A stretch of 15,472 bases of DNA from a virus (taxonomy: Duplodnaviria > Heunggongvirae > Uroviricota > Caudoviricetes), in the IMG/VR virus record IMGVR_UViG_2703718837_000003, positions 1 through 15,472 of that record, one strand, 5' to 3'. The position numbers and the translations under genes are program-made. Below the pieces are notes generated by a model, which saw only the letters and a list, made by a program, of their open reading frames with translations, searched no databases and was not told the DNA's origin. Shown in pieces: positions 1-15,472 of this stretch. Position 1 is the stretch's first letter. Each line of letters opens with the position of its first letter.

Positions 1-2
1 AA

Positions 3-101
3 GGAAACATAAAGAAAAAGTCATGGCTGGATAACAAAGAATTATTACAAACAGCGATATCAGTTCTTAAAGACAACAAAAATTTAAATGGTAAAATGTA
101 A
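3..101 (+). CDS. 3' end of a hypothetical ORF entering from the left window edge (C-terminus ...SWLDNKELLQTAISVLKDNKNLNGKM)
   Basis: Open frame from position 3 to TAA at 99-101 with no start in the window. It sits where a ydfK/ynaE-like gene lies upstream of pin in Qin/Rac-type prophages, but identity is not confirmed. Confidence 0.25.
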   Translation, partial: GNIKKKSWLDNKELLQTAISVLKDNKNLNGKM

Positions 102-419
102 TATAATAAACTTACTTTTTTATCATTTTTCCACTTTAACAACATTTTGCTCCACTTTTCCACGACCAAACAACTTGAAATCTGGTTAAAATAACACGCA
201 ACACTATTCTTCTTCCTTGAGTCCGCCCGGAACTCGAAAAACAAACCGAGTTAAGGCCATTTTTCACAAAATCGATTTTGGGTCTCACCAAAATTACGGG
301 GTTGCATACGCATTCGTTTATTTTCGAACGTGTACATACAAATATGTACAAAAATAATCAAAATTATTTTCTGAGATGCATTATGATATGTACACCAATT
401 TCGTATAGAAGATCTCACT

Positions 420-1010
420 ATGTCTCGAATTTATGCTTACTGTCGGGTATCAACTCTGGAACAGACAACCAAAAATCAACGTCGGGAAATCGAAAGTGCA
501 GGTTTTAACATCAAATCTCAGCAAATAATTGAAGAACAAATTAGCGGCTCAGCAGCAACCAGTGAGCGTCCTGGTTTTAACCAGTTGCTTGATCGACTGA
601 AAAGAGGTGATGCATTGATTGTCACAAAACTGGATCGCCTCGGTTGTAATCCAATGGATATCAGTAAAACGGTGGAACAACTGACCAAAGCAGGTATCAA
701 AGTGCATTGCTTAGCATTGGGGGGCGTTGACCTGACCAGTCCACCTGGAAAAATGATGATGCAAGTAATTTCAGCAGTCGCTGAATTTGAGCGAGACCTT
801 TTACTTGAGCGTACTCATTCAGGGATATTAAGAGCACGGGGCGCAGGAAAGCGATTTGGTCGCCCACCTGTGTTAAATGATGAACAAATACAGAGGGTAC
901 TAGAGCAAATTAAGTCAGGTATAAATATAAGTGACATTGCCCAAGAATTCAAAACCTCGCGGCAAACCATTTTAAGAGCTAAAGCAAAAAATCAGACACC
1001 TGATATATAA
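420..1010 (+). CDS. pinQ: Serine recombinase, Pin/Gin/Hin-family DNA invertase
   Basis: 196-aa [18 protein letters not shown]... with the resolvase/invertase N-terminal catalytic serine motif (YxRVST) and a C-terminal helix-turn-helix. Q versus R suffix is inferred from Qin-like synteny (cspI, cspB, cspF, hok). Confidence 0.9.
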
Positions 1011-1107
1011 AAATAATCTCGGTGTGAGATTCCTTACGTTTTCCAAGCCCCCCTTCCTAGCCTTAAATGGAAAGATACTTCTAATTATAGAATTTATATA
1101 TCTTACC

Positions 1108-1683
1108 CTACGGTAGGGCTGGCCATTCAATATCCGGTGCAGTTGATGTATCAACACGGTTCAGCAACACCCGATACTTTTTCCAGGCTTCCAGCAACAA
1201 GGTTTCTTCCTCCGTTGCGATCTCCAGATCCACAGCATCCTGAAGCGGCGCTATATGCTCACTGGCTACCTGCATCAGGCTGTTTTTTGTTTCTTCCGCC
1301 TCCCGGATCCGGAACAGTTTTTCTGCTTCCGTATCCTTCACCCAGGCTGTGCCGTTCCACTTCTGAAACTCCCCTTCCGGGGATAACCAGGTGACATTTT
1401 CCGGTAATGAGCCGAGTTCAGAAATAAATAACGCGTCGCCGGAAGCCACGTCATAAACCGTTTTACCCCGATGATCTTCAACGAGATGCCACGATGACTC
1501 ATCACTGTTGAAAACAGCCACGAAACCAGCCGGAATATCTGGCGGTGCAATATAGGTACTGTTTGCAGGCAGACCTGTATGAGGTGGAATATATGCGTCA
1601 CCGTCACCAATAAATTCATTAGTTCCGGACAACAGATTATAAATTTTTATGGTCCGTGCTTGTTCACTCATTCTGAATGCCAT
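1108..1683 (-). CDS. tfaQ: Tail fibre assembly protein Tfa (lambda tfa family)
   Basis: The C-terminal 191 aa of the long minus-strand ORF, starting [18 protein letters not shown]...[10 protein letters not shown], is near-identical to remembered lambda Tfa. ATG is at 1681-1683 (minus strand) and the stop at 1108-1110. Confidence 0.85.
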
Positions 1684-4600
1684 TATGCAAGCCTCACAAT
1701 ATAATGCGATGTTTTTGACGGTGTTTTCCGCGTTACCAGCAGCGTTAACGGTGATGGTGTGTCCATGTGAGCCAATCGCAACCGAGTGCGTATGCGCACC
1801 AATACCTACAGTATGTGCATGTGCGCCAGAACTTGCTGCAGTACCAGACAGCGAGTGGGTATGAGCACCTGCTGACTGTGTCTGAATACGTTGATAATAC
1901 GATCTACTGGAAGAAGTCCCCGGGCTTACTTGATACTGTGAATCCTGGACATAAGTGAACCCACCGCCATCATAAAATGCTAACGCAGAACCGCCGCCTC
2001 CTGGCCAACGAATACCATTACCGTGAGTATGAGCACCGGCAGACCCCGTAGAGCCACTCAGACTGTGCGTATGCGCCCCGGTGTTATTCGTGGATTTAGT
2101 GCCGTAATCAAACGACGATGTGGTTTTCGTCCCCAAATCCGTACTGGATGCGCTGGCGCTGTGGGTATGCGATTTAATGCCATCCTGTTCCTGAGACAAT
2201 ACGGCACGACCACTGGCGGGCTTGCCCTTAATCGTCCAGCCACGCATATCAGGGATCACGCCTGACGGATAAGCGGCTGCAAGTTTCGGGTAGGCAGATT
2301 TGTCAAAAGTCTGCCCCTGCATCAGGGCATAACCAGACGGAACGGTATCTGATGGCCACGGGATTGGTGCGCCGACTGGGTAGCTTTCTGGTGGAGGATT
2401 TTTCGAGGTATAAACTTCTGCCCAGTCTTCCTCAAAACCATAGCCATCTCTTGAGGAACGGTAGAACAGACCACCATTTCTGTAATGCGCCTTCATCTGC
2501 AGGGTCCGGCAACTTCCGACTCCGGTATAGAAGTTAACCAGAATATAGCTGTCGCCAGAGCGGGTGACATTGTAAGCGCCTGATTCGGCATTCCAGGGAA
2601 CGCCACCATCCGCATCGGCATATGTATCCGTTGCCCTTCTGGCAAAAGCAGCCACATGCGCGGCGGTTAAAGTAATATCTTTGGAACCATCAAACTCAAC
2701 ACCAGAAACCAGTCTTGGCGTTTGCAGCTTTGTTGCTGTTAATGCATTACCGTTCAGACTTGCGGACAGTTTGGTTCCAATAACCAGCTCGCCGGTTGCG
2801 TTATCAATAGCAAACGGTCTTAATGTATTCCAGCCACCATAAACATCACCTTGATTGGTAAGCAGCAGGTAAGTTTTAGCGCCATCATTACGCCATAATG
2901 CACCATACTCCCCACCTATCATTCGAATCTGATTACCACCACGCGCTACAATTTCGTCTGTGGCAAAAAGTTTTTTGCACGACAAGTTATCGTTAACGAT
3001 TAACGAATGAGACTCATAAAAACCACGCCCACTCTTAAAATCAAGGATAACGTCCGCCGCGATACATTCAGTCGCTGGATTTGTTGCCCCAAACTTATAG
3101 GTCGTATCATTAACAACGAGATCAGCACCAGGTGCGGATATTGACAGGCCATCTTCGATAAACGCAAAAACAGGGAAAGCAGCGCCATCAACATAGAACA
3201 CAGAGCGCAAATCATCGCCCTTATTACTCATCATTATTGAGTGGATGGCTCGTTCATTGTTTTGATATTGCCAGAACATTCCATAAGCATAACGCCCCCT
3301 GTCAGTCCAGCCACCAGGCATAACAAATCCGTTAAACTCGCAGTTATTCATCGGATCGCCTGCGATTCGCGTTGCCGTGGTGATAATGACCCTTGATGCC
3401 AGTTCGCTTACTGAGCCAGCAGAACGCATAACAACAACAGGGTAATATTTTCCAGATGTTGCACCTGCAGGAGCGTTAACCCGCACATAACGCATACCAC
3501 GCTTATCAGCAAAGTCTGTTTTACTGACCGCGTTAATGTTGTTCAGGAAGCGTCCCTTATCGGGTATATCAGCGCCGTTCTGGTTTTTCTGCAGACGTTT
3601 CTCTGCATTGTCATAGGCTGATTTTACTGCCTTTGGCGTTGCCGCCAGCGTTTCAGACGTACTGTTGGTCGCACTGCTGAGCTGTACTATCCCCTTTTTC
3701 GTCGTACTTGCATCCTCAAGCGCCACGGCGGATGCAATATCCTCTGCCCGTTTAGCTGCTGTCTCGGCGCGCGTTGCCGCGGATTCCGCCGTACTTTTGC
3801 TCTGAGCTGCCGCCGTCGCACTGCCAGCTGCCTCTGTCGCCTTCGTGGATGCCGTCGTGGCGCTGCTCTTCGCTGCTGACGCCTGTCTGGTCGCCTCATC
3901 TTTTGAAGCAGACGCCGATGATGCCGATGACGCCGCCGAACTGGCTGACGATGCGGCAGCCGTTTTTGAGGATTCTGCGCTGGTTTCCGACGCTTTCGCG
4001 TTCGTTTCGGATGTCTTCGCTGCGGAAGCAGAACTCGCTGCTGCGCTGGCCTGTTCAGTGGCTTCGCCAGCCTTCGTTGTGGCTGTTGAAGCAGACGATG
4101 CGGCACTTTCTGCCGACTTTCCGGCAGCGGTGGCACTGGCTGAGGCCTGCCCGGCACTTGTTGACGCGGCGCTGGCAGATGATGCAGCCGCTGTTTTTGA
4201 GTCTGCTGCTGCGGAGGCACTCTGTTCCGCTGCCGTCTCAGAAGACCTGGCGTTCGTCTCGGACGTTTTTGCCGCCTTCGCGGAATTTCCTGCCGCCGTT
4301 GCCGAGGAAGCTGCGCTACTGGCGCTCGAGGATGCGTTCGTTTCTGATGATTTCGCTGCCTCTTTTGAGGCCGCCGCATCCCGGGCTGAGGTGGCAGCTT
4401 CTGACGCTTTCGTGGTCGCGGTGGATGCAGAAGTGGCTGCTGATTGTTGTGATGCTGCGGCATTCGTTTCTGACTTTTTCGCCGCACCGGCACTGGTGGC
4501 CGCCGCGCTTTTTGAGGACTCTGCAGCGGCAGCACTTTTTTCCGCTTCAGTGGCCTTTGTTGATGCCGTTCCTGCGCTGGAAGACGCTGACTGATCCGGT

Positions 4601-5403
4601 TCATTACGGTAGCCGGTCATGGCATCCATAGCTGGCTGAAAATATTCACCGCAGTGCGGACATGGCCAGTACCAGCGGCGGCGGTCACCTCGATTGTAAA
4701 GGGAAAGAATACCAGTCGTCGGTGGCGCTTCATGAGGCGACTTACGTCGCCATTTGCTGTCGCAGATGTCACGTCCCGGCGAGCTCTCCACCAGAGTCAT
4801 CCCGGCGGACATAAATGTGGTGGTACGTTTTGAGGCCAGGGAGAAACCATCACCCTCGCTGTCGATATTCTCCGGAAAACGGTCGTAATCGGTTAAGGCG
4901 ACAAACCGGTAATCCGACGACGACATAATGTTGACCGAGGGCCAACCAATTTTAAGGAACGAGCCATCCCTGAACGTCTTATCATGGACATTATTGTCGT
5001 TACGACGTGGACTCATTCTTTTCTTTACCGCCGCACTGCTTCTGAACGTTCTGTCGAGGCGCTTTTTAGAATGCTCGCGGGCCTTATCTTCGGTCATCTG
5101 CACAACGAGCATGTCCGAAGGATCGCAAACGATGGTATAGACAATCCATCCATCGATCAGACCAATGGTCTTCCCTGTTCGCGCAGGACCAACAAAAATC
5201 ACCGCATCGTATTCACGCGATGCCAGGCAGTTCATGGGCTCAATGATGTAGGGTGTCAGTTCAGGATCCCATGGCACCGAGTTACCAGCCCCCTTGGGAA
5301 CACGCATGAATTTTTTAACAGCCTCCGAAATCGGCATGCGACGTGGTGGGGAAAATCCTGCCGATATGTCCCTTCCCAAATTTCGGGCTGATGAAAAACC
5401 CAT
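1684..5403 (-). CDS. Composite ORF: N-terminal ~270 aa of a lambda A-type large terminase fused in frame to a side tail fibre protein (StfR/StfQ-like) lacking its N-terminus
   Basis: The first ~270 aa carry a Walker-A-like VGPARTGKT and a CPHCGEY zinc-finger-like motif, as in lambda gpA. From ~aa 271 the sequence is Ser/Ala-rich repeats ([28 protein letters not shown]...) and the C-terminal domain (GAPIPWPSD..., GAHTHSLSG..., [21 protein letters not shown]) matches remembered lambda/K-12 Stf. A GGAGGA Shine-Dalgarno precedes the ATG at 5401-5403 and overlaps the stop of the upstream small-terminase gene. No stop separates this from tfa. Confidence 0.8.
3750..4595 (-). repeat. GC-rich low-complexity Ser/Ala/Thr-rich coding repeat inside the tail fibre gene
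   Basis: Reiterated motifs ([23 protein letters not shown]) in the Stf frame. The region lacks stop codons in several frames, producing the overlapping track ORFs 3687-4604(-), 3774-4631(+) and 3845-4594(+). Confidence 0.7.
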
Positions 5404-5411
5404 TATTCCTC

Positions 5412-5939
5412 CTAGAGACTCTCTCCTTCCTCATCAGGAATTAATTCAGCAGCACAAGCCTCGTAGGATTTTTCCTGAAGAGTGTATCGCAGGTCATCAA
5501 TGGCCTGCTGTACAACGCCGACGGCCTGAGGAGTCAGAGCGCAATCGCGTTCAAGAACATCCGGAATTGTCTCCAGAACCTGGACGACAGCCTTTCTCAT
5601 GGACGAATAGACGATGACTACTTCATCAACTGGGATGAGTTTTCGCTGCTCCTTTTCCAGCTTGATCCTTTCATTTTCAGACTGGTACCAGTCCTTTCTC
5701 TCTTTCGGCTCCATACGGGATGGATCATGAACAGAGTCTGCTGCCTCATGCTTCACACTAAACAGGGCGGGCCCGACATGCTGCAGGGCGTAAACGGGGT
5801 TCCCCCTGACAGTCGCAGCCACAGGAGTGTTGGCCGCGAGGAGCCGTTTTTTTACTGTGTCCCGGTGAAGCCCAAAGGCCTCGGCGATTTTAAAAACACT
5901 CCAGTAATAAGCATCACCGATCCCGCTCACATTTGACAT
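5412..5939 (-). CDS. Terminase small subunit (Nu1/NohA-like DNA-packaging protein)
   Basis: ~175-aa ORF immediately downstream of the cos-like site and immediately upstream of, and coupled to, the terminase large-subunit start. Preferred start is the second ATG (MSNVSGIGD...) with GGAG 7 nt upstream. Assignment is by position and architecture; the sequence is not a close lambda Nu1 match. Confidence 0.6.
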
Positions 5940-6114
5940 AAGCAACTCCATCTGGCAGGTGAAAATCAGGTTTATTTATATATTTCAATTAATTGCAAAC
6001 TGGTCTAATGACAGGAAGAAAAAAATATTGTACAGGTGAAAAGAGAAATAACTTTTAATTATCAATAAATTACCAAACATGCTGCCGCCGCCATGGAAAT
6101 GCAAAAACTAGCCT

Positions 6115-6140
6115 TTTTCCGCGACGCTCCCGCCCCGTGG
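6115..6140. other. cosN-like cohesive-end site
   Basis: The minus-strand reading ACGGGGCGGGAGCGTCGCGGAAAAAGG resembles the remembered lambda cos junction ...ACGGGGCGGCGACCTCGCGGGTTTTCG. It lies ~180 bp upstream of the small-terminase start, as in lambda. Confidence 0.5.
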
Positions 6141-6315
6141 CAGGGGCCCCCACCGGGAGGACCCGACAGCCTGACAGCCGTGACGAGCATCTGATACAGC
6201 GCTTTACATAATGGCATAGGAATAATTCAGAAGGACATCACAGCATGCCCACACAAATTAGTGTGAGTGTCCTGTTTCTTTCTACGCACAGGACTGACGA
6301 GCATGAGGGGAAAAT

Positions 6316-6483
6316 ATGCGAACCATAAATGCCTCATCTTCAGCAATGCAGCCGGCATTCGAACAGGACGATATTGTAAATTCACCTAATTACGAGGACA
6401 TTGCAGTAGTTGAATTGCAGCTCTGTATTAGCATGACAGTGACAGAATGCGACATTGACTCTGTCACAGGTGAAATAGTTTGA
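6316..6483 (+). CDS. Hypothetical small protein (55 aa)
   Basis: ATG at 6316 preceded by GAGGGG 5 nt upstream, stop TGA at 6481-6483. Acidic product MRTINASSSAMQPAFEQDDIV..., below the ORF-track length cutoff, no recognised homologue. Confidence 0.3.
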   Translation: MRTINASSSAMQPAFEQDDIVNSPNYEDIAVVELQLCISMTVTECDIDSVTGEIV

Positions 6484-6503
6484 ATGATTAGCAGTTATGG
6501 TGC

Positions 6504-6710
6504 TCAGTCAACCACCAGGGAATAATCCTTCGAATTCTTATCGTGCTTCACCAACGCTGCCTCAATTGCCCTGAATGCTTCCAGAGACACCTGATGTTCT
6601 ATACATGCAATTACAACATCCGGGTAACTCATAGAAATGGTGCTATTAAGCATATTTTTTACACGAATCAGATCCAACGAGAGTTCATCAGCAGATTGTT
6701 CTTTATTCAT
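6504..6710 (-). CDS. Hypothetical small protein (68 aa)
   Basis: Track [23 protein letters not shown]... with GGAG 7 nt upstream of the ATG. Convergent with the 55-aa ORF; may correspond to a ynfO-type Qin cargo gene but this is not confirmed. Confidence 0.45.
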
Positions 6711-7010
6711 TTTGTCGCTCCATGCGTTTGCTCGTCATCTAGCGGTTAAAATATTACTTCAAATCTTTCTACATAAAAGAGGAAAAGTATGAAAGTTTGA
6801 GTACATCGACCTTACATACATCTGTCGGTTGCATATCCCTCCTGGATGCCAGCAAGGCTCAACTTTGTTACGCAATCAACACTATTCATTAAAAACAGGC
6901 TTAATATTTGACATAAATCATCAACAAAACACAAAGAGGTCAGACCAGATTGAAACAATAAACACGATAATGCAAACTACGCGCCATCGTATCACATGGA
7001 AGGTTTACCA

Positions 7011-7421
7011 ATGGCTCAGGCTGCCATTTTTAAAGAAATATTCGATCAAGTGCGTAAAGATTTAAACTGTGAATTATTTTATTCTGAGCTAAAACGTCAC
7101 AATGTCTCACTTTATATTTACTATTTAGCCACAGATAATATTCACATTGTGTTAGAAAACGACAACATAGTGTTAGTAAAAGGACTCAAAAAGGTTGTAA
7201 ATGTTAAATTCTCCAGAAACAAACATCTTATAGAGACCTCCTATAATAAGTTGAAATCAAAAGAAATCACATTTCAACAATACAGGGAAAATCTTGCTAA
7301 AGCAGGAGTTTTCCGATGGGTTACAAATATCCAGGAACACCAAAGATATTACTATGCCTTTGATAACTCATTACTATTTACTGAAAGCATCCAGAAAACT
7401 ACACAGATCTTACCACGCTAA
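7011..7421 (+). CDS. ydfO: DUF1398-family protein YdfO
   Basis: [32 protein letters not shown]... matches remembered K-12 YdfO. Start chosen at the second ATG (7011), which has GGAAGG 7 nt upstream; the track ORF starts 15 nt earlier. Confidence 0.8.
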
Positions 7422-7521
7422 ACCATAACGTCCGGCTTCTCTCACTCCTGAGCCGGACTGCATTGGTTTAATAAAAACCATCAACAATTGTGATTTAGAT
7501 ATTCGGAACCATTCAAATATA

Positions 7522-7550
7522 ACAAAACCCCGTAAAAACGAGGTTTATGG
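7522..7550 (-). terminator. Candidate rho-independent terminator downstream of gnsB
   Basis: On the minus strand, a 7-bp stem (one G-U pair) with a short loop followed by TTTTGTT. Confidence 0.35.
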
Positions 7551-7572
7551 ATAAATTTTATTATTGAATACA

Positions 7573-7746
7573 TCAGATTAAATTAATCTTGACATCATAG
7601 CTTTCAAGACCCGTCATTTTTTCCCGTGCGGTAAACTGAATACTGGTAACTTCCTTCCCGGTCTTTTTCTTAAGTTCAATAATTTTTTTTGTTATATATT
7701 CAGAAATATCTGCTTCTGCTTTTGTTTTTAAGTCTTCAATATTCAT
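7573..7746 (-). CDS. gnsB: GnsB (Gns family, 57 aa)
   Basis: Hand translation of the minus strand gives MNIEDLKTKAEADISEYITKKIIELKKKTGKEVTSIQFTAREKMTGLESYDVKINLI, matching the Gns family. Absent from the ORF track because it is under 60 aa. Confidence 0.8.
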   Translation of the reverse strand: MNIEDLKTKAEADISEYITKKIIELKKKTGKEVTSIQFTAREKMTGLESYDVKINLI

Positions 7747-7917
7747 CATTTCCTCTTTTAGTCTGTTATGACTTTCCAGTTACACAGTAAGTCGATTATA
7801 TGGTGCAAACGTGTAAAAGATAAGATGAAACATCGCAATAATCAACATACGATAGTCTAAATTTTACACAAACAGACAAAGAGAATTTTCCTGAATTATC
7901 AATGCAATAGCATCAAA

Positions 7918-8148
7918 TCAACTCAAGAGCCTTATTGCTGCTTCCAGAATTTCTTCTGAAGTAACATGTCGATCCGCGGCTACATAAATGACTTTATGAT
8001 CTCCGGTCAGAGATGGAAACCCTGCGGCCATTACAGTAAGGTGTGTTTTTTCGCCATTTGGATATTCACGCATGATGGTGTTAACTCCAGTCATCGCTGG
8101 CACTACCACTGCTGGTTCAGAGTTAAAAAAAACTATGATTTTTTTCAT
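7918..8148 (-). CDS. ynfN: Small cold-shock-associated protein YnfN
   Basis: The C-terminal 51 aa (MREYPNGEKTHLTVMAAGFPSLTGDHKVIYVAADRHVTSEEILEAAIRLLS) match remembered YnfN. The frame is open upstream to 8190, so the start is uncertain (8073, 8148 or 8190). Confidence 0.6.
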   Translation of the reverse strand: MKKIIVFFNSEPAVVVPAMTGVNTIMREYPNGEKTHLTVMAAGFPSLTGDHKVIYVAADRHVTSEEILEAAIRLLS

Positions 8149-8189
8149 GATGTTACCGTAGTATGTGAGTATCCATCGAATAGACACCA

Positions 8190-8217
8190 AGCAAAAAAGC
8201 TCCCGAAGGAGCCTTCA
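8190..8217 (-). terminator. Rho-independent terminator downstream of cspI
   Basis: Minus-strand GC stem (GCTCC-TTCG-GGAGC) followed by TTTTTT. Confidence 0.55.
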
Positions 8218-8419
8218 TTTTCACTTTTTTAAATCCAACGACAGACGGCTGGCATTTAAGTATTGTGAAATATTATCAAATGTAATCATCATTGATTTAC
8301 AAAAGATACATTTTGCCCCGAAAGGATTCATGTCAGAAACATCAAAAGATGATGTTCTATACTGGGAACCATGACAACACGGGCATCTAAAGTGAATATG
8401 GTTTGTAATATTGTCTACC

Positions 8420-8632
8420 TCAAAGCGCCACTACATGAACAGCGGCAGGACCTTTAGGTCCGTTCTCAATACCAAATTCAACTTCCTGATTCTCAGTTAA
8501 TGTTTTGAAATCGTTGCTCTGAATTGCTGAGAAATGGACAAACACATCTTTGCTGCCATCTTTCGGCGTGATGAAACCAAAACCTTTTTCAGGGTTAAAC
8601 CATTTCACTAAACCAGTCATTTTGTTAGACAT
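8420..8632 (-). CDS. cspI: Cold-shock protein CspI
   Basis: The 70-aa product [70 protein letters not shown] is a full cold-shock domain matching CspI. AAGG lies ~7 nt upstream of the ATG, as in csp genes. Confidence 0.95.
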
Positions 8633-8994
8633 AATTATTACCTTTTGAAGAAATTAGCCCTTGGGCAGAATGGTCCGAAAAAAAATATCAGAGAGAAAAA
8701 CCAACAAGGAAATCTCAAGAGGTACAAATAATAAAATTATAACAATGACTGCTTCAGATAAATTTGTAACAAACCAGAACACCATTAACGCATGATTAAC
8801 CACCCATAGCAAGGATTACTTTTGTAAAGAAAAACACAGCAATGAAAGAATAGCTTTATTTATTAATAAAACGTGTCATTCTGATTAAGACCTTTTATCT
8901 TACCCTTAAGATTTCAGGAATTTTGGCTCATGGAAGAGTCCTTTTTATTTAAATTTTACATTCCGCGATGTAAATGTTCCGATTTAATATTACC

Positions 8995-10018
<1,024 letters not shown>

Positions 10019-10022
<4 letters not shown>

Positions 10023-10330
10023 ATATATTTATGATGAGGACGCTCGTGCTTATTGGCAGGATTTTCAATCTTAAAGGAGTACTGATGCTGCAGATAAGAC
10101 TCAACTTTTTCTGACAATTTTTCTGCTACTTCCAGGAAGACTTGCCGGACGCTCCTTCTGGCTGCTGCCTCATAAAACTCCAGCGCAGCTCCTTCAACAC
10201 GGTCCATGGCGACATCCAAGCCAAAAATTTCACCGTCAAAGCGTTCTTTGTCCTGTAAGGCTACAGTTACCGTAACTTTATTCTCAAAATTACGGACTCC
10301 TTTCACAACCAGTTCATAGTCTTGAGTCAT
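10019..10330 (-). CDS. ydfR: DUF1327-family protein YdfR, between holin and endolysin
   Basis: 103-aa ORF MTQDYELVVKGVRNFENKVTVTVALQDK... with GAGGAG 9 nt upstream of the ATG. Confidence 0.75.
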
Positions 10331-10334
10331 TGGA

Positions 10335-10550
10335 TTACTCTCCTCTCGCAGCCTTACGCCTGTCTTCTTTAATCTTGAAATAAAGATTTGTCAGATACGT
10401 CAGCAGGCCAAAAACCAGGCTACCCAGCACACCGATTGCAGCCCACTGTGACGGAGTTACTTTATCGAGTAACTGCAATGCCCAGAAACCAGCATTACCC
10501 GCCGATGTGCCATAGGCAACACCTGTTGTTAACTTATCCATTGATTTCAT
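10335..10550 (-). CDS. essQ: Class II holin / pinholin (phage 21 S-type)
   Basis: 71 aa from [28 protein letters not shown]... with the dual-start motif (Met1, Met4) and two transmembrane segments, matching S21. The track ORF extends 25 codons upstream; the start is placed at the MKSM Met with GAGGA just upstream. Confidence 0.85.
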
Positions 10551-10769
10551 ATCCTCACCCCGATGTACACGGATGGTGCAATATGTTTGAAAAGATCGGA
10601 GTCTACGGGGTAGTTTTGACAGCACACGTTGTTCTCAACGGCGCTAAAGAAACATACACATTAAAAATGTGAGTAATTATTTTGAAAGAAAGTCATATAT
10701 AAAATAATAATACGAGAAATGTTTTCATATTTAGTGTACTGTATACGGCCATTTATACAGGAAAAGCCT

Positions 10770-10940
10770 ATGTCAGAACGTAAAGACTCAAAATCACGCC
10801 GTAATTATCTCGTTAAATGTTCCTGCCCAAACTGCACCCAAGAGTCAGAACACAGTTTTTCAAGAGTACAAAAAGGTGCCCTTTTGATCTGCCCTCATTG
10901 CAACAAAGTATTCCAGACAAATCTTAAAGCTGTAGCCTGA
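10770..10940 (+). CDS. Zinc-ribbon microprotein (56 aa, CxxC...CxxC), possibly YnfU
   Basis: MSERKDSKSRRNYLVKCSCPNCTQESEHSFSRVQKGALLICPHCNKVFQTNLKAVA with two CxxC pairs and AGGA ~8 nt upstream of the ATG. Length and location fit a Qin zinc-binding microprotein recalled as YnfU, but the name is not certain. Confidence 0.5.
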   Translation: MSERKDSKSRRNYLVKCSCPNCTQESEHSFSRVQKGALLICPHCNKVFQTNLKAVA

Positions 10941-10994
10941 TTGATTTTATTAGTAACAAGTATTTTTATATTTTAATAATATATTTAAAGCAGA

Positions 10995-11022
10995 TAATAA
11001 AAAACCCGCCTGAGCGGGTTTG
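10995..11022 (-). terminator. Rho-independent terminator downstream of cspB
   Basis: Stem CCCGC-CTGA-GCGGG; on the minus strand it is followed by TTTTTTATT. Confidence 0.6.
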
Positions 11023-11302
11023 AGATTGTGGTGCTTTTTGTGGGAGTCATCCACTTACGCACTTTGTTTTGCCATGCCAGCAGTTAGCTTCTGCTGTAAA
11101 ACTATTCATGCAGCAAACCTGCACTTCACCACAATGGTTAGCATACTTTTCCTGATTAAGATTTTGCCAAATATGCTGGCCATTGTTTCATGTATTGGAC
11201 CTCCTTAATTTTTATTAAAGAAATCCAATATTCACTACTCTGTCCGTATCTCTACTCAGGCATCAGCCTTCTTCGTTATCGTATACAGACGAGCGATGAA
11301 TT

Positions 11303-11518
11303 TTAATCAGTAATGATGACATTTGCTGCTGCAGGACCTTTAGCACCACTCTCTATAGAGAAGGTAACCTTTTGACCTTCAAATAAGGTTCGATAATTAT
11401 CATTCTGAATCGCAGAAAAATGCACAAACACATCTTTACTACCATCAACAGGAGAAATAAAGCCGAAACCTTTATCAGCGTTAAACCATTTTACTAAACC
11501 AGTCATTTTATTTGACAT
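11303..11518 (-). CDS. cspB: Cold-shock protein CspB
   Basis: The 71-aa product [71 protein letters not shown] matches CspB. Confidence 0.95.
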
Positions 11519-11828
11519 TCTACATTCCTTAACTTGAGCCTTTCGGCATAAATGGTTTGCATAACAGAAACGACTTCGTACTTAATTGGAGAGACTCAAA
11601 GAAGGAATAAGTGAATAACACCTGAAATGAGAACTGCTTTAGTAAACTACTTCGTATATCGTCTGTTCTTCAAACCGACGCAGTCATTAACTCATAGTTG
11701 AACATATGAAGCAATGTTTATTTTAGACATCCAGCCACCTTCAATCCTATCAAAAAAGTAGTTTTCTCCAGGAACGTGTGTATGGTGCACCAGGTTATCA
11801 GTATTAAGGAGTTTTTCTGTCCCCTAAA

Positions 11829-12019
11829 ATGACAGGAATTGTCAAAAACTTTGACTACAAAAGCAGCAAAGGTCTTATATTCCCATCCGATGGCGTATCG
11901 ATGCCCAGCTTCACGTTTCAGCTCTCAATCTTCGAGATGCAGAAGAAATTACCACAGGATTACGCGTGGAATTTTGCCGGATAAATGGTTCGCGTGGACC
12001 TTCAACTGCCAATGTTTAT
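11829..12019 (+). pseudogene. cspF: cspF-like cold-shock-domain gene, apparently frameshifted
   Basis: The N-terminal half of the cold-shock domain ([22 protein letters not shown]) is in one frame from ATG 11829. The C-terminal half ([42 protein letters not shown]) is in the -1 frame, consistent with a 1-bp deletion near 11893. The C-terminal frame then has no stop until 12355. Confidence 0.5.
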
Positions 12020-12061
12020 CCCGGGATGAGATTCAATATCTCTATTGCCCCATTTAAAGCA

Positions 12062-12100
12062 CAAAAACCCGCTTATAAGCGGGTTTTCTACTTTTTTCTA
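12062..12100. terminator. Bidirectional rho-independent terminator (candidate tR' for the late promoter and terminator for cspF)
   Basis: Stem AAACCCGC-TTATAA-GCGGGTTT flanked by an A-run on the left and a T-run on the right, so it can terminate either strand. Confidence 0.6.
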
Positions 12101-12133
12101 AACGTCGGATACACAAAGCCCATCGTTGAGAAA

Positions 12134-12162
12134 ATCTTATCCATGTTTTTTGAAAAATGCAA
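12134..12162 (-). promoter_or_regulatory. Candidate sigma-70 late promoter (PR'-like) immediately downstream of the Q gene
   Basis: Minus-strand TTGCAT, 17-nt spacer, TAAGAT, ~30 bp downstream of the Q stop and ~40-65 bp upstream of the bidirectional terminator, as for lambdoid PR'/tR'. Confidence 0.35.
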
Positions 12163-12193
12163 ACATCATGTCGCCATCTTCAGCAAAAATCAT

Positions 12194-12946
12194 TTATCTC
12201 GTCACCTTCCTCAATTGCGCTTCCGCGTATGCTTCTTCCTGCCAGCACTTTGTTACCAGTTTACCAATGACGTCCGCATACCCCTTATACCACTGATAAT
12301 CGGTCAGGTCTGGTACCAGCTTCTGGACATGACGTCGTGCCAGCGTGGTCGGTAAACGACTAAACCGGTTTCCATTACAACGCCCACAAATCTTATATAC
12401 CGGTACGCCATGAAACCGGGTTCTTTTTTCATCCAGAACAATCCCTTTACCCTTACACCCTCTGCACGCTGTGCTGACTTCGCCCTTACCATGGCAATGC
12501 TGACATAGTTCCTTCACCCATTCTTCCTTGATTACAGATTCCCCGCGTCTGTAGTGTTTCACCACTTCGCGCAATACATTATAAAATCCCGTACCTGAAC
12601 AATGCTCACAGCGAGCCTTACTTGCCGCAGACCTGGAGTAATCAGCAAAGGCAAAATTCACGAGGTAAGGAATAATCTGTAACCGGATTTCTTCACTCAA
12701 TTTGTTCAATGTCGGGTTATCCAGTGCCATCGCGTAATTTAGCAGGCCTTCAATCGCAAACTGAGCGTCCTGAACACCAACTTTTGCCAGAAATAAGGCC
12801 AACCCAAGTGGTGCTTTCGACTGCACCATCCCCTGCGCTGCCATTACATCCGTAATTGTTAAACAACCGGTGCCTGTCGCTGGAGCGTCATCGCTCAATT
12901 TTGGAGATTTTGGGGAGTAATATTTTGGTAAGGCTTCAAGGTTCAT
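12194..12946 (-). CDS. quuQ: Late-gene antiterminator Q (phage-82-type)
   Basis: 250 aa from [10 protein letters not shown]... with multiple CxxC zinc-binding motifs, matching the remembered QuuQ/82-type Q family. GGAG lies 8 nt upstream of this ATG; the track ORF starts 10 codons earlier. Confidence 0.85.
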
Positions 12947-12959
12947 GCTCGTTCTCCAC

Positions 12960-14009
12960 TTACGCCAGTACGCCAATTGCCAGTGCGCGATCGATAAAAC
13001 GAAATATCAGCTCCAGTTGGGAGCCATACTTCTCTTCAAATGCCACTGTATCCGTATGCAGCTCGTTGTGATGCTTTCTGCACAAAGGCAACACAAAGAG
13101 ATCATGTGCTTTTGTTCCCATTCCGCCCTGCCCGTGACCAATCAGATGATGCGGATCGTCGGCTGGCATACCGCAGCAAGCACACGGCTGTGTCTTAACC
13201 CAACGTGTGTATTTCTCCTTAACCCAGCGGCGACGTTTAGGCAGCTTCATGAAAGATTCCGGAGACTCTGGATCAACGGTGATGCTTACCACCGTCTTTT
13301 CCTGTGGTGGTTTTTGTTGCTGGTGGGCGTAAGGCAACGGTGCAAGATTTTTTGTGCGTTGTTTCAATATGCTGGTGGCGGTCTGCTCTCCCGGTACGAT
13401 GTCGCTCTCGCGGTACACCGAGCAGATTTTTTCCGCTGGTAATCCCAGCGAACGACGTAATACCGCTTCCGGTAGCGCGTCCGCCACCTGATTGCGGACC
13501 GCCCACCAGGATAATTCAGCCAGAGATAATTCACGCTCCTGCGTACCGCTTATTGCGTGACGGATGACGTCAATCACCCATGCTGTCAGATTTTGTTGAG
13601 CAAGCAGCTCCAGTGATTCCGATGTCTGGTCACGTAGCTGGTTGTCGCAGTGCCAGCACAACACCATTGCGCCGGTACCATAACGGTGAATGACGGTTTC
13701 GCTGTGATGATAATCGCCGTGTGGCCACTGGCAGGATTTAATATGGCGCAACAGCCAGTCAGACAATGCACCAGCACCACCAGCAGCACGAATCACCCGT
13801 GCGTTACTGAAAAACGGCAGCAATGTTTTGTCTTCCACCAGCGGCTGGCGAACGGCAGGAACGACCCCGGACGGCAGATTACGCATGCTTTTCGGTTCCG
13901 GTTCCACCAGCACTCGAGGATTATGAAATATCTGTATGGATTCACGGCCCGGCTTAAGGACCACCAGCCCAAGCTCAGGCACCAGAACAGGTCTAAGTAA
14001 TACCCGCAC
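12960..14009 (-). CDS. ydfU: DUF968-family protein YdfU with a C-terminal HNH-like motif
   Basis: The C-terminus carries CACCG...DDPHHL...KAHD...CRKHHNELH. The probable start is the GTG at 14007-14009 with GGAGG 3 nt upstream, giving 349 aa; the track ORF starts at an upstream GTG (14048). Confidence 0.75.
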   Translation of the reverse strand: MRVLLRPVLVPELGLVVLKPGRESIQIFHNPRVLVEPEPKSMRNLPSGVVPAVRQPLVEDKTLLPFFSNARVIRAAGGAGALSDWLLRHIKSCQWPHGDYHHSETVIHRYGTGAMVLCWHCDNQLRDQTSESLELLAQQNLTAWVIDVIRHAISGTQERELSLAELSWWAVRNQVADALPEAVLRRSLGLPAEKICSVYRESDIVPGEQTATSILKQRTKNLAPLPYAHQQQKPPQEKTVVSITVDPESPESFMKLPKRRRWVKEKYTRWVKTQPCACCGMPADDPHHLIGHGQGGMGTKAHDLFVLPLCRKHHNELHTDTVAFEEKYGSQLELIFRFIDRALAIGVLA

Positions 14010-14010
14010 G

Positions 14011-14289
14011 TTACCTCCAGATCCGTTGCTGGAAAGTGCGGGACGCACGTGGTGGGCGTTCGGAATAAGGCAGCCTGACAGAGATTATCCAGTGCCGATA
14101 GTCGAGACTGAGAGCTTTCTTAACCTCGAACCCGCGCCTGCGGTAAGAATGAATCAGCCATTCGGCCTGTTCTGCAGTGCATGGAGGGTGCTGGAACCAT
14201 TCAGACTTGAATGCGTGAGAATACCGCCCGTGCGTGCAGGCAAGAACGGGCGAATTATCAGAATTGTAATATTTTACGTTGCGTGCCAT
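14011..14289 (-). CDS. Hypothetical protein (92 aa), translationally coupled to ydfU
   Basis: ATG with GGAG 8 nt upstream. Its TAA stop is 1 nt from the ydfU GTG start, and its last codons contain the ydfU Shine-Dalgarno. No recognised homologue. Confidence 0.5.
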   Translation of the reverse strand: MARNVKYYNSDNSPVLACTHGRYSHAFKSEWFQHPPCTAEQAEWLIHSYRRRGFEVKKALSLDYRHWIISVRLPYSERPPRASRTFQQRIWR

Positions 14290-14355
14290 CGGTTTTCTCC
14301 GGTGGCACGGTGTTACTCAGCGGGAGTTCAGCCCCGCGCAAGATTGTAGATGAGT

Positions 14356-14607
14356 TTATTCTTCTGCAAAAGCTGAAAAGCCTGCTTTTATTCCGATCTC
14401 TTTCAGTGCCTGTAATGAAGTGACAAACTCACCTTCGCGCAAGATAAATCCGTCTGTCACTCGACCATCCACAAAATTAATTAACGCAGCCCCATTCTTT
14501 CGCAAACACATAATGCGGTAATGACTAACAATATTTCCATTTTCAACGCACACAGCATAGAGGCCATCTTCACAAAAAATTTTACGCAGTTCTTCGATGT
14601 TCATCAT
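14356..14607 (-). CDS. rem: Small prophage protein Rem (83 aa)
   Basis: 83-aa ORF MMNIEELRKIFCEDGLYAVC... with GGAAGGA upstream. Called Rem from its length and position between ydfU and hok in Qin; the sequence itself is not remembered, so this is a synteny call. Confidence 0.55.
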   Translation of the reverse strand: MMNIEELRKIFCEDGLYAVCVENGNIVSHYRIMCLRKNGAALINFVDGRVTDGFILREGEFVTSLQALKEIGIKAGFSAFAEE

Positions 14608-14722
14608 CAGAATCCTTCCGGATAATTAGCTCTCCCCTTTAAGGGACCATCCCTCTTATCCCTGCGCGCTACTTAAGTATTTTTGATTCTATTCCGGCAC
14701 CGTCCAGAACTTCAAACGCGTT

Positions 14723-14757
14723 GAAAATAAAAACAAAAACCCGCCGAAGCGGGTTAA
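14723..14757 (-). terminator. Rho-independent terminator downstream of hok
   Basis: Stem ACCCGC-CGAA-GCGGGT; on the minus strand it is followed by a long T-rich run. Confidence 0.6.
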
Positions 14758-14823
14758 GTGCGGGTGCGTTGAAGATGCCTGCCACATCAGAGGTGGCGAG
14801 GGATTTCTCCCTCGCCGGGTCTC

Positions 14824-14979
14824 TTACTCCTCAGGTTCGTAAGCTGTGAAGACAGCGACCTCCGTCTGGCCGGTTCGGATTCGTACCTCGCAGAGGTCTT
14901 TCCTCGTTACCAGTGCCGTCACTATGACGGTTAAACAGATGACGATCAGGGCGATTAACATCGCCTTTTGCTGCTTCAT
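14824..14979 (-). CDS. hokD: Hok-family membrane toxin (type I toxin)
   Basis: MKQQKAMLIALIVICLTVIVTALVTRKDLCEVRIRTGQTEVAVFTAYEPEE (51 aa) matches the Hok/Gef family. A perfect 9-bp hairpin (GGCGAGGGA-TTTC-TCCCTCGCC, 14794-14816) follows the stop. Confidence 0.85.
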   Translation of the reverse strand: MKQQKAMLIALIVICLTVIVTALVTRKDLCEVRIRTGQTEVAVFTAYEPEE

Positions 14980-15036
14980 AGCCTGCTTCTCCTTGCCTTT
15001 CGGCACGTAAGAGGCTAACCTACATGTGTCTAGCAT
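14824..15036 (-). CDS. Mok-like overlapping reading frame (in-frame N-terminal extension of hok)
   Basis: The 70-aa frame MLDTCRLASYVPKGKEKQAMKQQ... resembles chromosomal Mok proteins (MokC-like N-terminus, from memory). Confidence 0.45.
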   Translation of the reverse strand: MLDTCRLASYVPKGKEKQAMKQQKAMLIALIVICLTVIVTALVTRKDLCEVRIRTGQTEVAVFTAYEPEE

Positions 15037-15456
15037 GAAATTGGCCTCAGATTAATGTTAAGCGTCTTGCAGGACGCGTAATGTTAACTGGGGCTTTTCT
15101 CTATCTGCCTTTGGTGTTCATGCCCGAGGCAGATAGCCTCAAGCACCCACAGCCATTCTACTTAACTACCGTTACCTCGCCAATATGAAATCAGTCAGAA
15201 AGGCGATCCATAAGAACAATAGCAAGACAATAAATCGCCATTACAGCCGTAATAGCCAGCGCACATTTGAGAACCAGCACCACAACCTCCTGTATTGGAC
15301 GTAGACCAGTCCTGATGAATATGAGGCTGTCTCGTCAGTGATTCAATACAACTATTGGGTATAGTTTCTCTGATTTTTTCTGTGGAAATGGGGCACAACC
15401 ACTAGTCACCACCAGCACTTCTTTTAATACGCAAAGTCCGACACAAGCTAACCTTC

Positions 15457-15472
15457 TAGACTGGCCCCCTGA
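15457..15472 (+). mobile_element. Left terminal inverted repeat of IS2, truncated by the window edge
   Basis: The last 16 bp, TAGACTGGCCCCCTGA, match the remembered IS2 left end (TAGACTGGCCCCCTGAATCTCC...). Only 16 bp are visible. Confidence 0.5.

Follow-up and report, generated by a model that had tools for sequence, protein, structure and literature searches.

Can a lambdoid prophage that lacks head genes still carry a working packaging signal, and if it can, what could be done with that signal? The question is raised by a stretch of 15,472 nucleotides of phage DNA (hereafter the window), which is the entire 15.5-kb contig LONZ01000065.1 of assembly GCA_001575355.1 and ends inside prophage DNA. 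Its best whole-window match in complete E. coli genomes has 91% coverage and 97.5% identity. A preliminary description placed a lambda-like cos site at 6100-6150, upstream of a small-terminase gene, in a prophage without head genes, and proposed that the element could be packaged in trans by a co-resident lambdoid helper of matching terminase specificity.

A lambda-like cos site does lie within and adjoining 6100-6150, on the minus strand, with cosN at about 6140..6119. Its cosQ (6158-6164) and the candidate cosB described below (5952-6118) fall outside the range first given. Read on the minus strand, the site runs GGGTCCT (cosQ, 6164..6158), then 22 nt, then CACG/GGGCGGGAGCGT/CGCGG, the slashes bounding the predicted cohesive end. 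Its two core elements are as follows.

6158..6164, minus strand: cosQ, the packaging-termination element, 7 bp, GGGTCCT, 22 nt upstream of the nick (23 nt in lambda)
6119..6140, minus strand: cosN, the nicking site, CCACG/GGGCGGGAGCGT/CGCGG, with a predicted 12-nt 5' cohesive end at 6135..6124

Over the 6100-6170 region the minus strand reads GGCTGTCGGGTCCTCCCGGTGGGGGCCCCTGCCACG/GGGCGGGAGCGT/CGCGGAAAAAGGCTAGTTTTTGCATTTCC, and lambda at equal register reads CGGGTCCTTTCCGGTGATCCGACAGGTTACG/GGGCGGCGACCT/CGCGGGTTTTCGCTATTTATG. The cohesive end GGGCGGGAGCGT is identical to lambda GGGCGGCGACCT at 8 of 12 bases: bases 1-6 are all equal, and the mismatches fall at 7, 8, 9 and 11. The same in-register alignment gives 8/12 with phi80 and 7/12 with N15. 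Window and lambda also have in common the CG dinucleotides at both nick positions and the 7-bp cosQ, which has the same letters in lambda, phi80, N15, Tritos, cdtI, mEp460, mEp213 and VT1-Sakai. These comparisons were made in register from record ends, in place of blastn; in blastn searches against phages the cos core did not align with that of lambda, because the stretch in common is too short. The mEp460 record opens at terS and not at cos, so the mEp460 site was read from the end of the record. As a control, the same extraction applied to mEp213 gives GGGCGGCGCGCT, which a passage of PMC12315714 cites as the mEp213 cos assigned by Feiss.

The pattern of agreement is the one to be expected of a lambda-like cos. 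Among natural sites of this kind, variation within the cohesive end's right half is common, while the nick-flanking CG and cosQ are conserved (PMC4669245), cosQ highly so among lambda-like phages (Feiss 2015, PMC4669245). The Gifsy-1 cohesive end differs from lambda at bases 8, 9 and 11 (PMC4669245), and that of the window has one more mismatch, at base 7. The site in the window thus shows the features by which Feiss recognizes a lambda-like cos, namely the cohesive-end pattern with the conserved left half of a 12-nt 5' end, the nick-flanking CG and the 7-bp cosQ upstream; like members of that class, it has a match to the IHF consensus between cosN and terS. It differs from the class (lambda, 21, phi80, N15, Monarch, Gifsy-1) in carrying none of the R-site sequences of lambda, 21 or N15.

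Could the resemblance to lambda cosN be a chance match in GC-rich DNA, with no packaging role? That just 8 of the 12 cohesive-end bases agree with lambda would leave room for this. However, GGGTCCT-N18-26-CGGGGCGG, the composite of cosQ, spacer and cosN, was found a single time in the window and in none of 200 shuffles, the block upstream of terS is kept in eight phages, and the linear Tritos record and the cdtI record both open exactly at window base 6135. Record starts, eight-phage conservation and shuffles together effectively refute a chance match, whose probability is close to nil. The strongest evidence for cos is positional, the opening of two phage records at 6135, although these starts may reflect the lambda convention instead of mapped ends. 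Cleavage into 12-nt 5' ends at 6135/6124 is a prediction made solely from the record starts, and a literature search found no experimental DNA-end mapping for a cos of the Tritos/cdtI type.

The small terminase gene that had been placed downstream of cos is present and intact, on the minus strand.

5412..5939, minus strand: terS, small terminase subunit, 175 aa (179 aa from an upstream ATG at 5951), Pfam DUF1441, PHROG 141

The annotation of PHROG 141 is 'terminase small subunit', and Tritos, cdtI and HannyBb each have a TerS of 100% identical sequence. It is a DUF1441 protein and not a homologue of Nu1. BLASTP against lambda Nu1 gives no significant similarity (E = 4.6), and Pfam finds DUF1441 only, which places TerS outside the Nu1 homologues with their R-site-binding winged helix-turn-helix. 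A single-sequence AlphaFold model of TerS has a pLDDT of 44.7, too low for use, and a sequence search of the PDB with TerS returned no match.

The intact relatives allow the state of the site to be judged. Tritos (E. coli LF82 prophage 3, OV696610) has cosQ, cosN and cosB identical to those of the window: between 5539 and 6164 there are 0 mismatches, so that cosQ through cosB is 100% identical, and there are 3 over 4593-6135. The sole nearby difference is an 8-bp tandem unit at 6165-6180, outside cosQ, present in 2 copies as against 3 in Tritos. In cdtI (NC_009514), cosB differs from the window at 4 positions. Tritos is spontaneously induced from E. coli LF82, has been imaged as a siphovirus and forms plaques on MG1655 hsdR- (PMC9928086). 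By their identity to this plaque-forming phage, the cis-acting site and terS should be as good as those of a working phage.

Between cosN and terS lies a region whose role as cosB is suggested by its position and by its co-variation with the TerS N-terminus.

5952..6118, minus strand: candidate cosB, the TerS/IHF binding region, 167 bp, between cosN and terS
6060..6072, plus strand: perfect match to the IHF consensus TATCAATAAATTA, at +64 to +76 from the mature left end
6033..6042, plus strand: copy 1 of a 10-bp direct repeat, CAGGTGAAAA (TTTTCACCTG in phage orientation), candidate TerS recognition element
5956..5965, plus strand: copy 2 of CAGGTGAAAA, directly upstream of the terS start

The region is AT-rich, with 34% GC versus 81% for cosN-cosQ. 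It opens with AAAAAGGCTAGTTTTTG (6118..6102), a block conserved in all DUF1441-type cos sites, and in the alignment, the conserved block that comes immediately after cosN in every DUF1441-type phage reads CGCGGAAAAAGGCTAGTTTTTG. A GC-triplet tract at 6080-6092 comes after the conserved block. The IHF consensus WATCAANNNNTTR is matched at 6060-6072 only in the whole 15.5-kb window, and a TTGAT core about 70 nt from the end stands in the same place in mEp460, PhiR40_1, PSTCR8lys and mEp213. In lambda the best IHF-like match, at bp 79-91, has the same strand and a comparable distance. Of the cosB and IHF sites to be looked for here, an IHF consensus is present; R sequences of the lambda type are absent from the candidate cosB, and the repeats are candidates only.

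Which elements might TerS recognize in place of R sites? Nine cos regions were aligned (window, Tritos, cdtI, mEp460, PhiR40_1, mEp213, VT1-Sakai, Providencia PSTCR8lys and lambda), and TTTTCACCTG(N)CAG is common to the window and the Providencia phage PSTCR8lys only. The N-terminal 60 residues of PSTCR8lys TerS are 77% identical to those of the window TerS. In mEp460, PhiR40_1, VT1-Sakai and Gifsy-2, TerS has another N-terminal domain, 17-25% identical, and an inverted repeat, GTGTCGA...TTTTTTGTTCGACAC, replaces the TTTTCACCTG motif. Between these two groups TerL residues 1-50 are 42-58% conserved, versus 76-83% for the next 130. By analogy with lambda versus 21, we infer from this that the DUF1441 terminases may fall into two packaging-specificity classes, with the CACCTG repeats as candidate TerS sites. 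Copy 2 may also belong to the terS translation-initiation region. The 10-bp repeat came from a direct motif search, a repeat-finding program having returned no direct repeats in cosB. With up to one mismatch it is found 3 times window-wide where 1.57 are expected, which is not significant, so that the argument for it comes only from the comparison with PSTCR8lys. All the cosB elements named here are predictions drawn solely from conservation and co-variation over nine sequences.

Beyond terS the window parts company with its working relatives. The head genes (portal, capsid) are gone, as the preliminary description had recognized, and so are most tail genes. The point of loss can be placed precisely: terL breaks off after 270 of its 699 codons and runs on into a tail-fibre gene.

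4594..5403, minus strand: terL', remnant of the large terminase gene, codons 1-270 of 699, with Pfam GpA_ATPase over residues 40-274
4588..4594, no strand: deletion junction, an in-frame fusion of terL codon 270 to the interior of the side-tail-fibre gene
1108..4593, minus strand: stf'-tfa, tail-fibre remnant fused to the tail-fibre assembly gene, with Gp34_trimer, Collar, Phage_fiber and Caudo_TAP domains
420..1010, plus strand: pinQ-like serine invertase, the last prophage gene in the packaging direction on the contig

The product of terL' is 98% identical to the 699-residue TerL of cdtI, the match ending abruptly at residue 270; of its domains, the GpA ATPase is largely preserved and nothing of the endonuclease is left. 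There is little or no microhomology at the junction (4588-4594). The deletion takes out the equivalent of Tritos 1544 to about 19,000, that is, some 17 kb of portal, capsid and tail genes, and the exact terL'::stf junction was found as a single-piece match in 0 of 5,426 complete E. coli genomes. Through a separate deletion, of 5 bp near 1700, the stf stop codon is lost and stf is fused to tfa, and terL' and stf'-tfa together make up one chimeric 1431-aa ORF (5403..1108, minus strand), the next after terS. No invertible-segment repeats were found beside pin.

Apart from the deletion, window and Tritos are collinear. The right arm, window 6136-14306, aligns with Tritos 46360-38180 at 98.6% identity; window 4593-6135 aligns with Tritos 1543-1 at 99.8%, and the pin region, window 1-1218, with Tritos 23914-22699. 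Tritos and cdtI are complete phages, in which an entire TerL and the portal, capsid and tail genes are present. The window is without the equivalent of Tritos 1544 to about 19,000, and its stf alleles are different ones. The lineage of these two phages is marked by 12-nt 5' cohesive ends, DUF1441 TerS, GpA-type TerL and Gifsy-type heads; of its packaging module the window has the cosQ-cosN-cosB and the TerS, and no full-length GpA-type TerL.

What kind of element is left? Outside the packaging module, what remains is the Qin late region: positions 1-2414 and 6933-14993 match K-12 Qin with 93-97.6% identity, and the gene order pinQ-tfaQ-stfQ ... ydfO-gnsB-cspI-rzpQ-rrrQ-ydfR-essQ-cspB-ydfT-ydfU-rem-hokD is common to both. 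The element is therefore a Qin-family defective prophage. In K-12 Qin, as in the window, late and lysis genes, cos and a small terminase are followed directly by stf-tfa-pin, with no head genes. The two differ only in the packaging module at 2415-6932: that of K-12 Qin has a lambda-identical cosQ-cosN, a cosB with lambda-like R sites and NohA, a Nu1 homologue, whereas that of the window has a DUF1441 TerS, another cosB, four cohesive-end mismatches to lambda and the 270-codon terL stump. Tritos uses the same att site as Qin; its attP maps onto both boundaries of K-12 Qin, which makes Tritos the intact counterpart of Qin. In related E. coli strains the element sits at ydfJ-rspB in varied states of decay. 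Some of these loci still have int, xis and exo genes; in K-12 intQ is a pseudogene, in CFIAFB20190167 int is frameshifted, and in MB06234 an IS interrupts the replication region.

These observations show an intact cos and terS of the Tritos/cdtI lineage retained in a Qin-family prophage, and the retained site is probably a relic, passive and still young, rather than a device shaped by adaptation. An illegitimate deletion would have joined terL codon 270 to the side-tail-fibre gene and, by chance, spared cos and terS. The remainder is 98.6-99.8% identical to a live phage, hence the youth of the relic.

Selection could instead have kept the cos-terS-terL' cassette, as a decoy cos and/or as a dominant-negative TerL(1-270) fusion acting against Tritos-type phages, or as a means of redirecting their packaging to the remnant. 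The fusion ORF is in frame and retains both the TerL N-terminus, which in lambda is the TerS-binding region, and the Walker A motif; moreover, several independent terL' truncations spare cos and terS. If true, such selection would account for several independent Qin deletions having ended only a short way into terL. However, an in-frame junction arises by accident one time in three, and the stf-tfa frameshift and the near-identity to a live phage speak of recent decay rather than adaptation. The repeated terL-to-stf deletions were rejected as a sign of selection for cos and terS, since every example came from cos or terS queries and the sample is thereby biased. Retention of the cassette by selection is very improbable.

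If the element is a passive relic, what could still happen at its cos? In lambda, terminase attaches at cosB, makes its nicks at cosN and brings the end that bears cosB into the prohead (PMC4669245). By analogy, TerS from a co-resident or infecting phage of the same class would bind cosB, with IHF bending the DNA at 6060-6072, and nicks would be made at 6136/6135 and 6124/6123. DNA would then be translocated leftwards from the cosB end, taking in terS, terL'-stf-tfa, pin, attL and host DNA. This direction does not suit the idea of an element packaged as a unit from its own cos, for it leaves the greater part of the prophage behind. Lysis and regulatory genes, and any integrase, are on the opposite side of cos, so that packaging of the unit could follow only after excision and replication.

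The identity of the helper also has to be narrowed. A cognate helper could act in principle, as the preliminary description supposed, but likeness to lambda is not compatibility with it. Both TerS and cosB belong to another class, and the helper would therefore have to be of the Tritos/cdtI type; with a TerS that is DUF1441 and not of the Nu1 family, none of lambda, 21, phi80 and N15 is a match. A complete module of this type, with cos, terS and a terL of full length, is present in 631 of 5,426 complete E. coli genomes (about 12%), and cognate helpers are thus common.

Three outcomes of such an encounter can be envisaged. First, cleavage at cos could leave a double-strand break that stimulates recombination and marker rescue with the phage, as for DLP12 and lambda. 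Second, inefficient single-cos 'doc'-type particles could carry the left arm and flanking chromosome. Third, should excision and replication persist, concatemers could be packaged in trans, as for O157 Sp4. The first is the most likely real-world effect, and trans-packaging of the element by a cognate helper is possible but unproven.

The case for recombination draws on DLP12, another defective prophage in which cos and a small terminase gene (nohD/nu1) are retained, there documented as functional and as a hot spot of recombination with lambda (PMC3945230). Owing to the homology that flanks its cos, lambda recombinants arose 100-fold more often than with the other defective prophages that were tested; cos adjoins half of the junctions, and the DLP12 nu1 works in lambda (De Paepe et al., PMC3945230). 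Retention of cos in a defective prophage is thus an idea already known, and K-12 Qin and DLP12 show the same; a literature search on docL particles and on the nohA/Qin cos gave nothing usable.

The second outcome invites a further question: might packaging begin in situ and run into the chromosome? In such polar packaging the unexcised cos would be cut and DNA taken up leftwards, so that pin and attL would be transduced together with some 39 kb of host genes, from ydfJ, ydfI and dcp onwards, a cos-driven analogue of lateral transduction. The layout would permit it: terS lies left of cosN, related loci have attL and ydfJ a further 6-7 kb or so to the left, and entry is from the cosB end (PMC4669245). 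Yet the chromosomal locus is assumed from relatives, the contig being without flanks. A single chromosomal cos has no packaging-termination site, as no cos lies downstream to serve as terminator, and terminases of the lambda type do not make efficient headful cuts. Lambda doc particles, reportedly described by Sternberg and Weisberg in 1975, show that events of this kind can happen. Against this, a recent paper has it that lateral transduction is not carried out by cos phages (PMC12829572), and both the in-situ transfer of host genes and its reading as a counterpart of lateral transduction are improbable.

Taken further, the third outcome would make the whole element a helper-dependent mobile unit, one that excises, replicates, is packaged via its own cos and transfers at meaningful frequency. 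It has an intact cos and terS, cognate terminase and head modules are common in E. coli, and related Qin loci with int, xis and exo still exist. There are also precedents. In O157:H7 Sakai the prophages Sp4, Sp9, Sp13 and Sp15, though defective in head or terminase, are still packaged (PMC2669165), Sp4 probably by the Sp14 terminase via a near-identical cos (Asadulghani et al. 2009, PMC2669165). Like the element in the window, Sp4 is a defective lambdoid prophage without intact terminase and head genes that has retained cos. The two differ in what is known of them, since packaging of Sp4 was shown by DNase-protected DNA and the window element is known here from its sequence alone. For Sp4, amplification by the regional replication of a neighbouring prophage and excision by its own integrase are also known.

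A second precedent is provided by cos-bearing PICIs, which are packaged by lambda and phi80 (PMC6092414). Elements such as EcCICFT073 and SaPIbov5 resemble the window in having helper-type cosN/cosQ without capsid genes and in relying on the capsid of the helper (PMC6092414, PMC9026076). They differ in being dedicated satellites of about 10-15 kb with their own int, replication module and Rpp, and they have no TerS, lysis cassette or Q, all three of which are in the window. With a phage TerS, a holin-lysozyme-Rz cassette and the Q antiterminator, the element is a decayed phage and not a PICI or other satellite.

Several points weigh against whole-element mobility. No int, xis or replication genes were found on this 15.5-kb contig, and in relatives (K-12, CFIAFB20190167, MB06234) integration or replication is often broken. 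Qin-type remnants measure about 20-25 kb as against 46.4 kb for Tritos; under the size rule for lambda packaging, a monomer would fall short and a dimer would be borderline. A terS of its own would, in addition, be superfluous if the TerS of the helper is the same. Transfer of the element as a helper-dependent unit is accordingly unlikely. Mobilisation of the whole is possible but unsupported, and the passive relic is again the reading that fits: an ordinary relic, not a new type of element. Current understanding is not changed, the same situation being known in K-12 Qin, DLP12 and the O157 Sakai prophages.

What the locus does offer is a capsid-less remnant in which a prophage lineage common in E. 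coli has left its packaging signal undamaged. With that signal intact, the remnant could still be cut by, and recombine with, incoming relatives, one route by which lambdoid phages are kept mosaic. As a by-product, the comparison provides a sequence-level anatomy (cosQ, cosN, IHF site, candidate TerS repeats) of the little-studied DUF1441-type cos sites. It also hints at a division into two specificity classes, between which cosB motifs and the N-terminal domain of TerS would change in step.

The cos region of the window differs from that of the plaque-forming phage Tritos, the intact counterpart of Qin, solely in the copy number of an 8-bp tandem unit that adjoins cosQ, which is present twice in the window and three times in the phage.

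6165-6180: tandem unit GACAGCCT, two copies

Comparison of the candidate cosB (5952-6118) with the corresponding loci L010 and L013-L017 showed that in DUF1441-type terminases the N-terminal 60 residues of TerS co-vary with the repeat motif of cosB and with residues 1-50 of TerL. This sequence pattern suggests that these terminases may fall into two packaging-specificity classes, a putative first one comprising Tritos, cdtI and PSTCR8lys and a putative second one comprising mEp460, PhiR40_1, VT1-Sakai and Gifsy-2.

Downstream of terS, a single ORF of 1431 aa (1108-5403, minus strand) is a triple chimera of TerL residues 1-270, a side-tail-fibre remnant and Tfa. It arose through two deletions: one, at 4588-4594, is in frame, and the other, a loss of 5 bp (TTAAC) near 1700, took away the stf stop codon. 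Elements in the E. coli strains MB06234, EH01-18-02, K-12 and MRE162 carry independent deletions, with differing end points, that connect the terminase region with a tail-fibre gene, and every one of them keeps cos and terS. Because all of these examples were obtained through cos or terS queries, selection cannot be inferred from the recurrence of deletions that spare the two.

The window is an entire assembly contig (positions 1 to 15472), with its left end inside the cold-shock gene ydfK and its right end just beyond hokD. K-12 Qin diverges from it over the last ~480 bases (14994-15472), and Tritos matches 14735-15459 at 94%. The assembly probably broke at repeats common to other prophages of the same genome. 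Rfam matches scoring above the gathering threshold placed four RNA elements, all on the minus strand:

1142-1340: IS009 sRNA, within tfa
8393-8778: cspA-type thermoregulator leader, upstream of a prophage cold-shock gene
11287-11679: cspA-type thermoregulator leader, likewise upstream of a prophage cold-shock gene
14974-15148: sok, the antitoxin RNA at the hokD locus

Chi (GCTGGTGG) occurs eight times in the 15.5-kb window, against 0.45 expected from shuffles.

9597-9604, 13777-13784, 13835-13842, 13904-13911, 13961-13968 and 15409-15416: Chi, minus strand
13319-13326 and 13371-13378: Chi, plus strand

The phage 'top' strand carries six of them, most are clustered within a ydfU-like gene, and all lie on the unpackaged, cosQ side of cos. 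The Tritos class has been described as having 'right-end clustered Chi' and no anti-RecBCD function (PMC12315714), and the distribution in the window fits that clustering. Sites so placed would protect the free end that remains after cos is cut.
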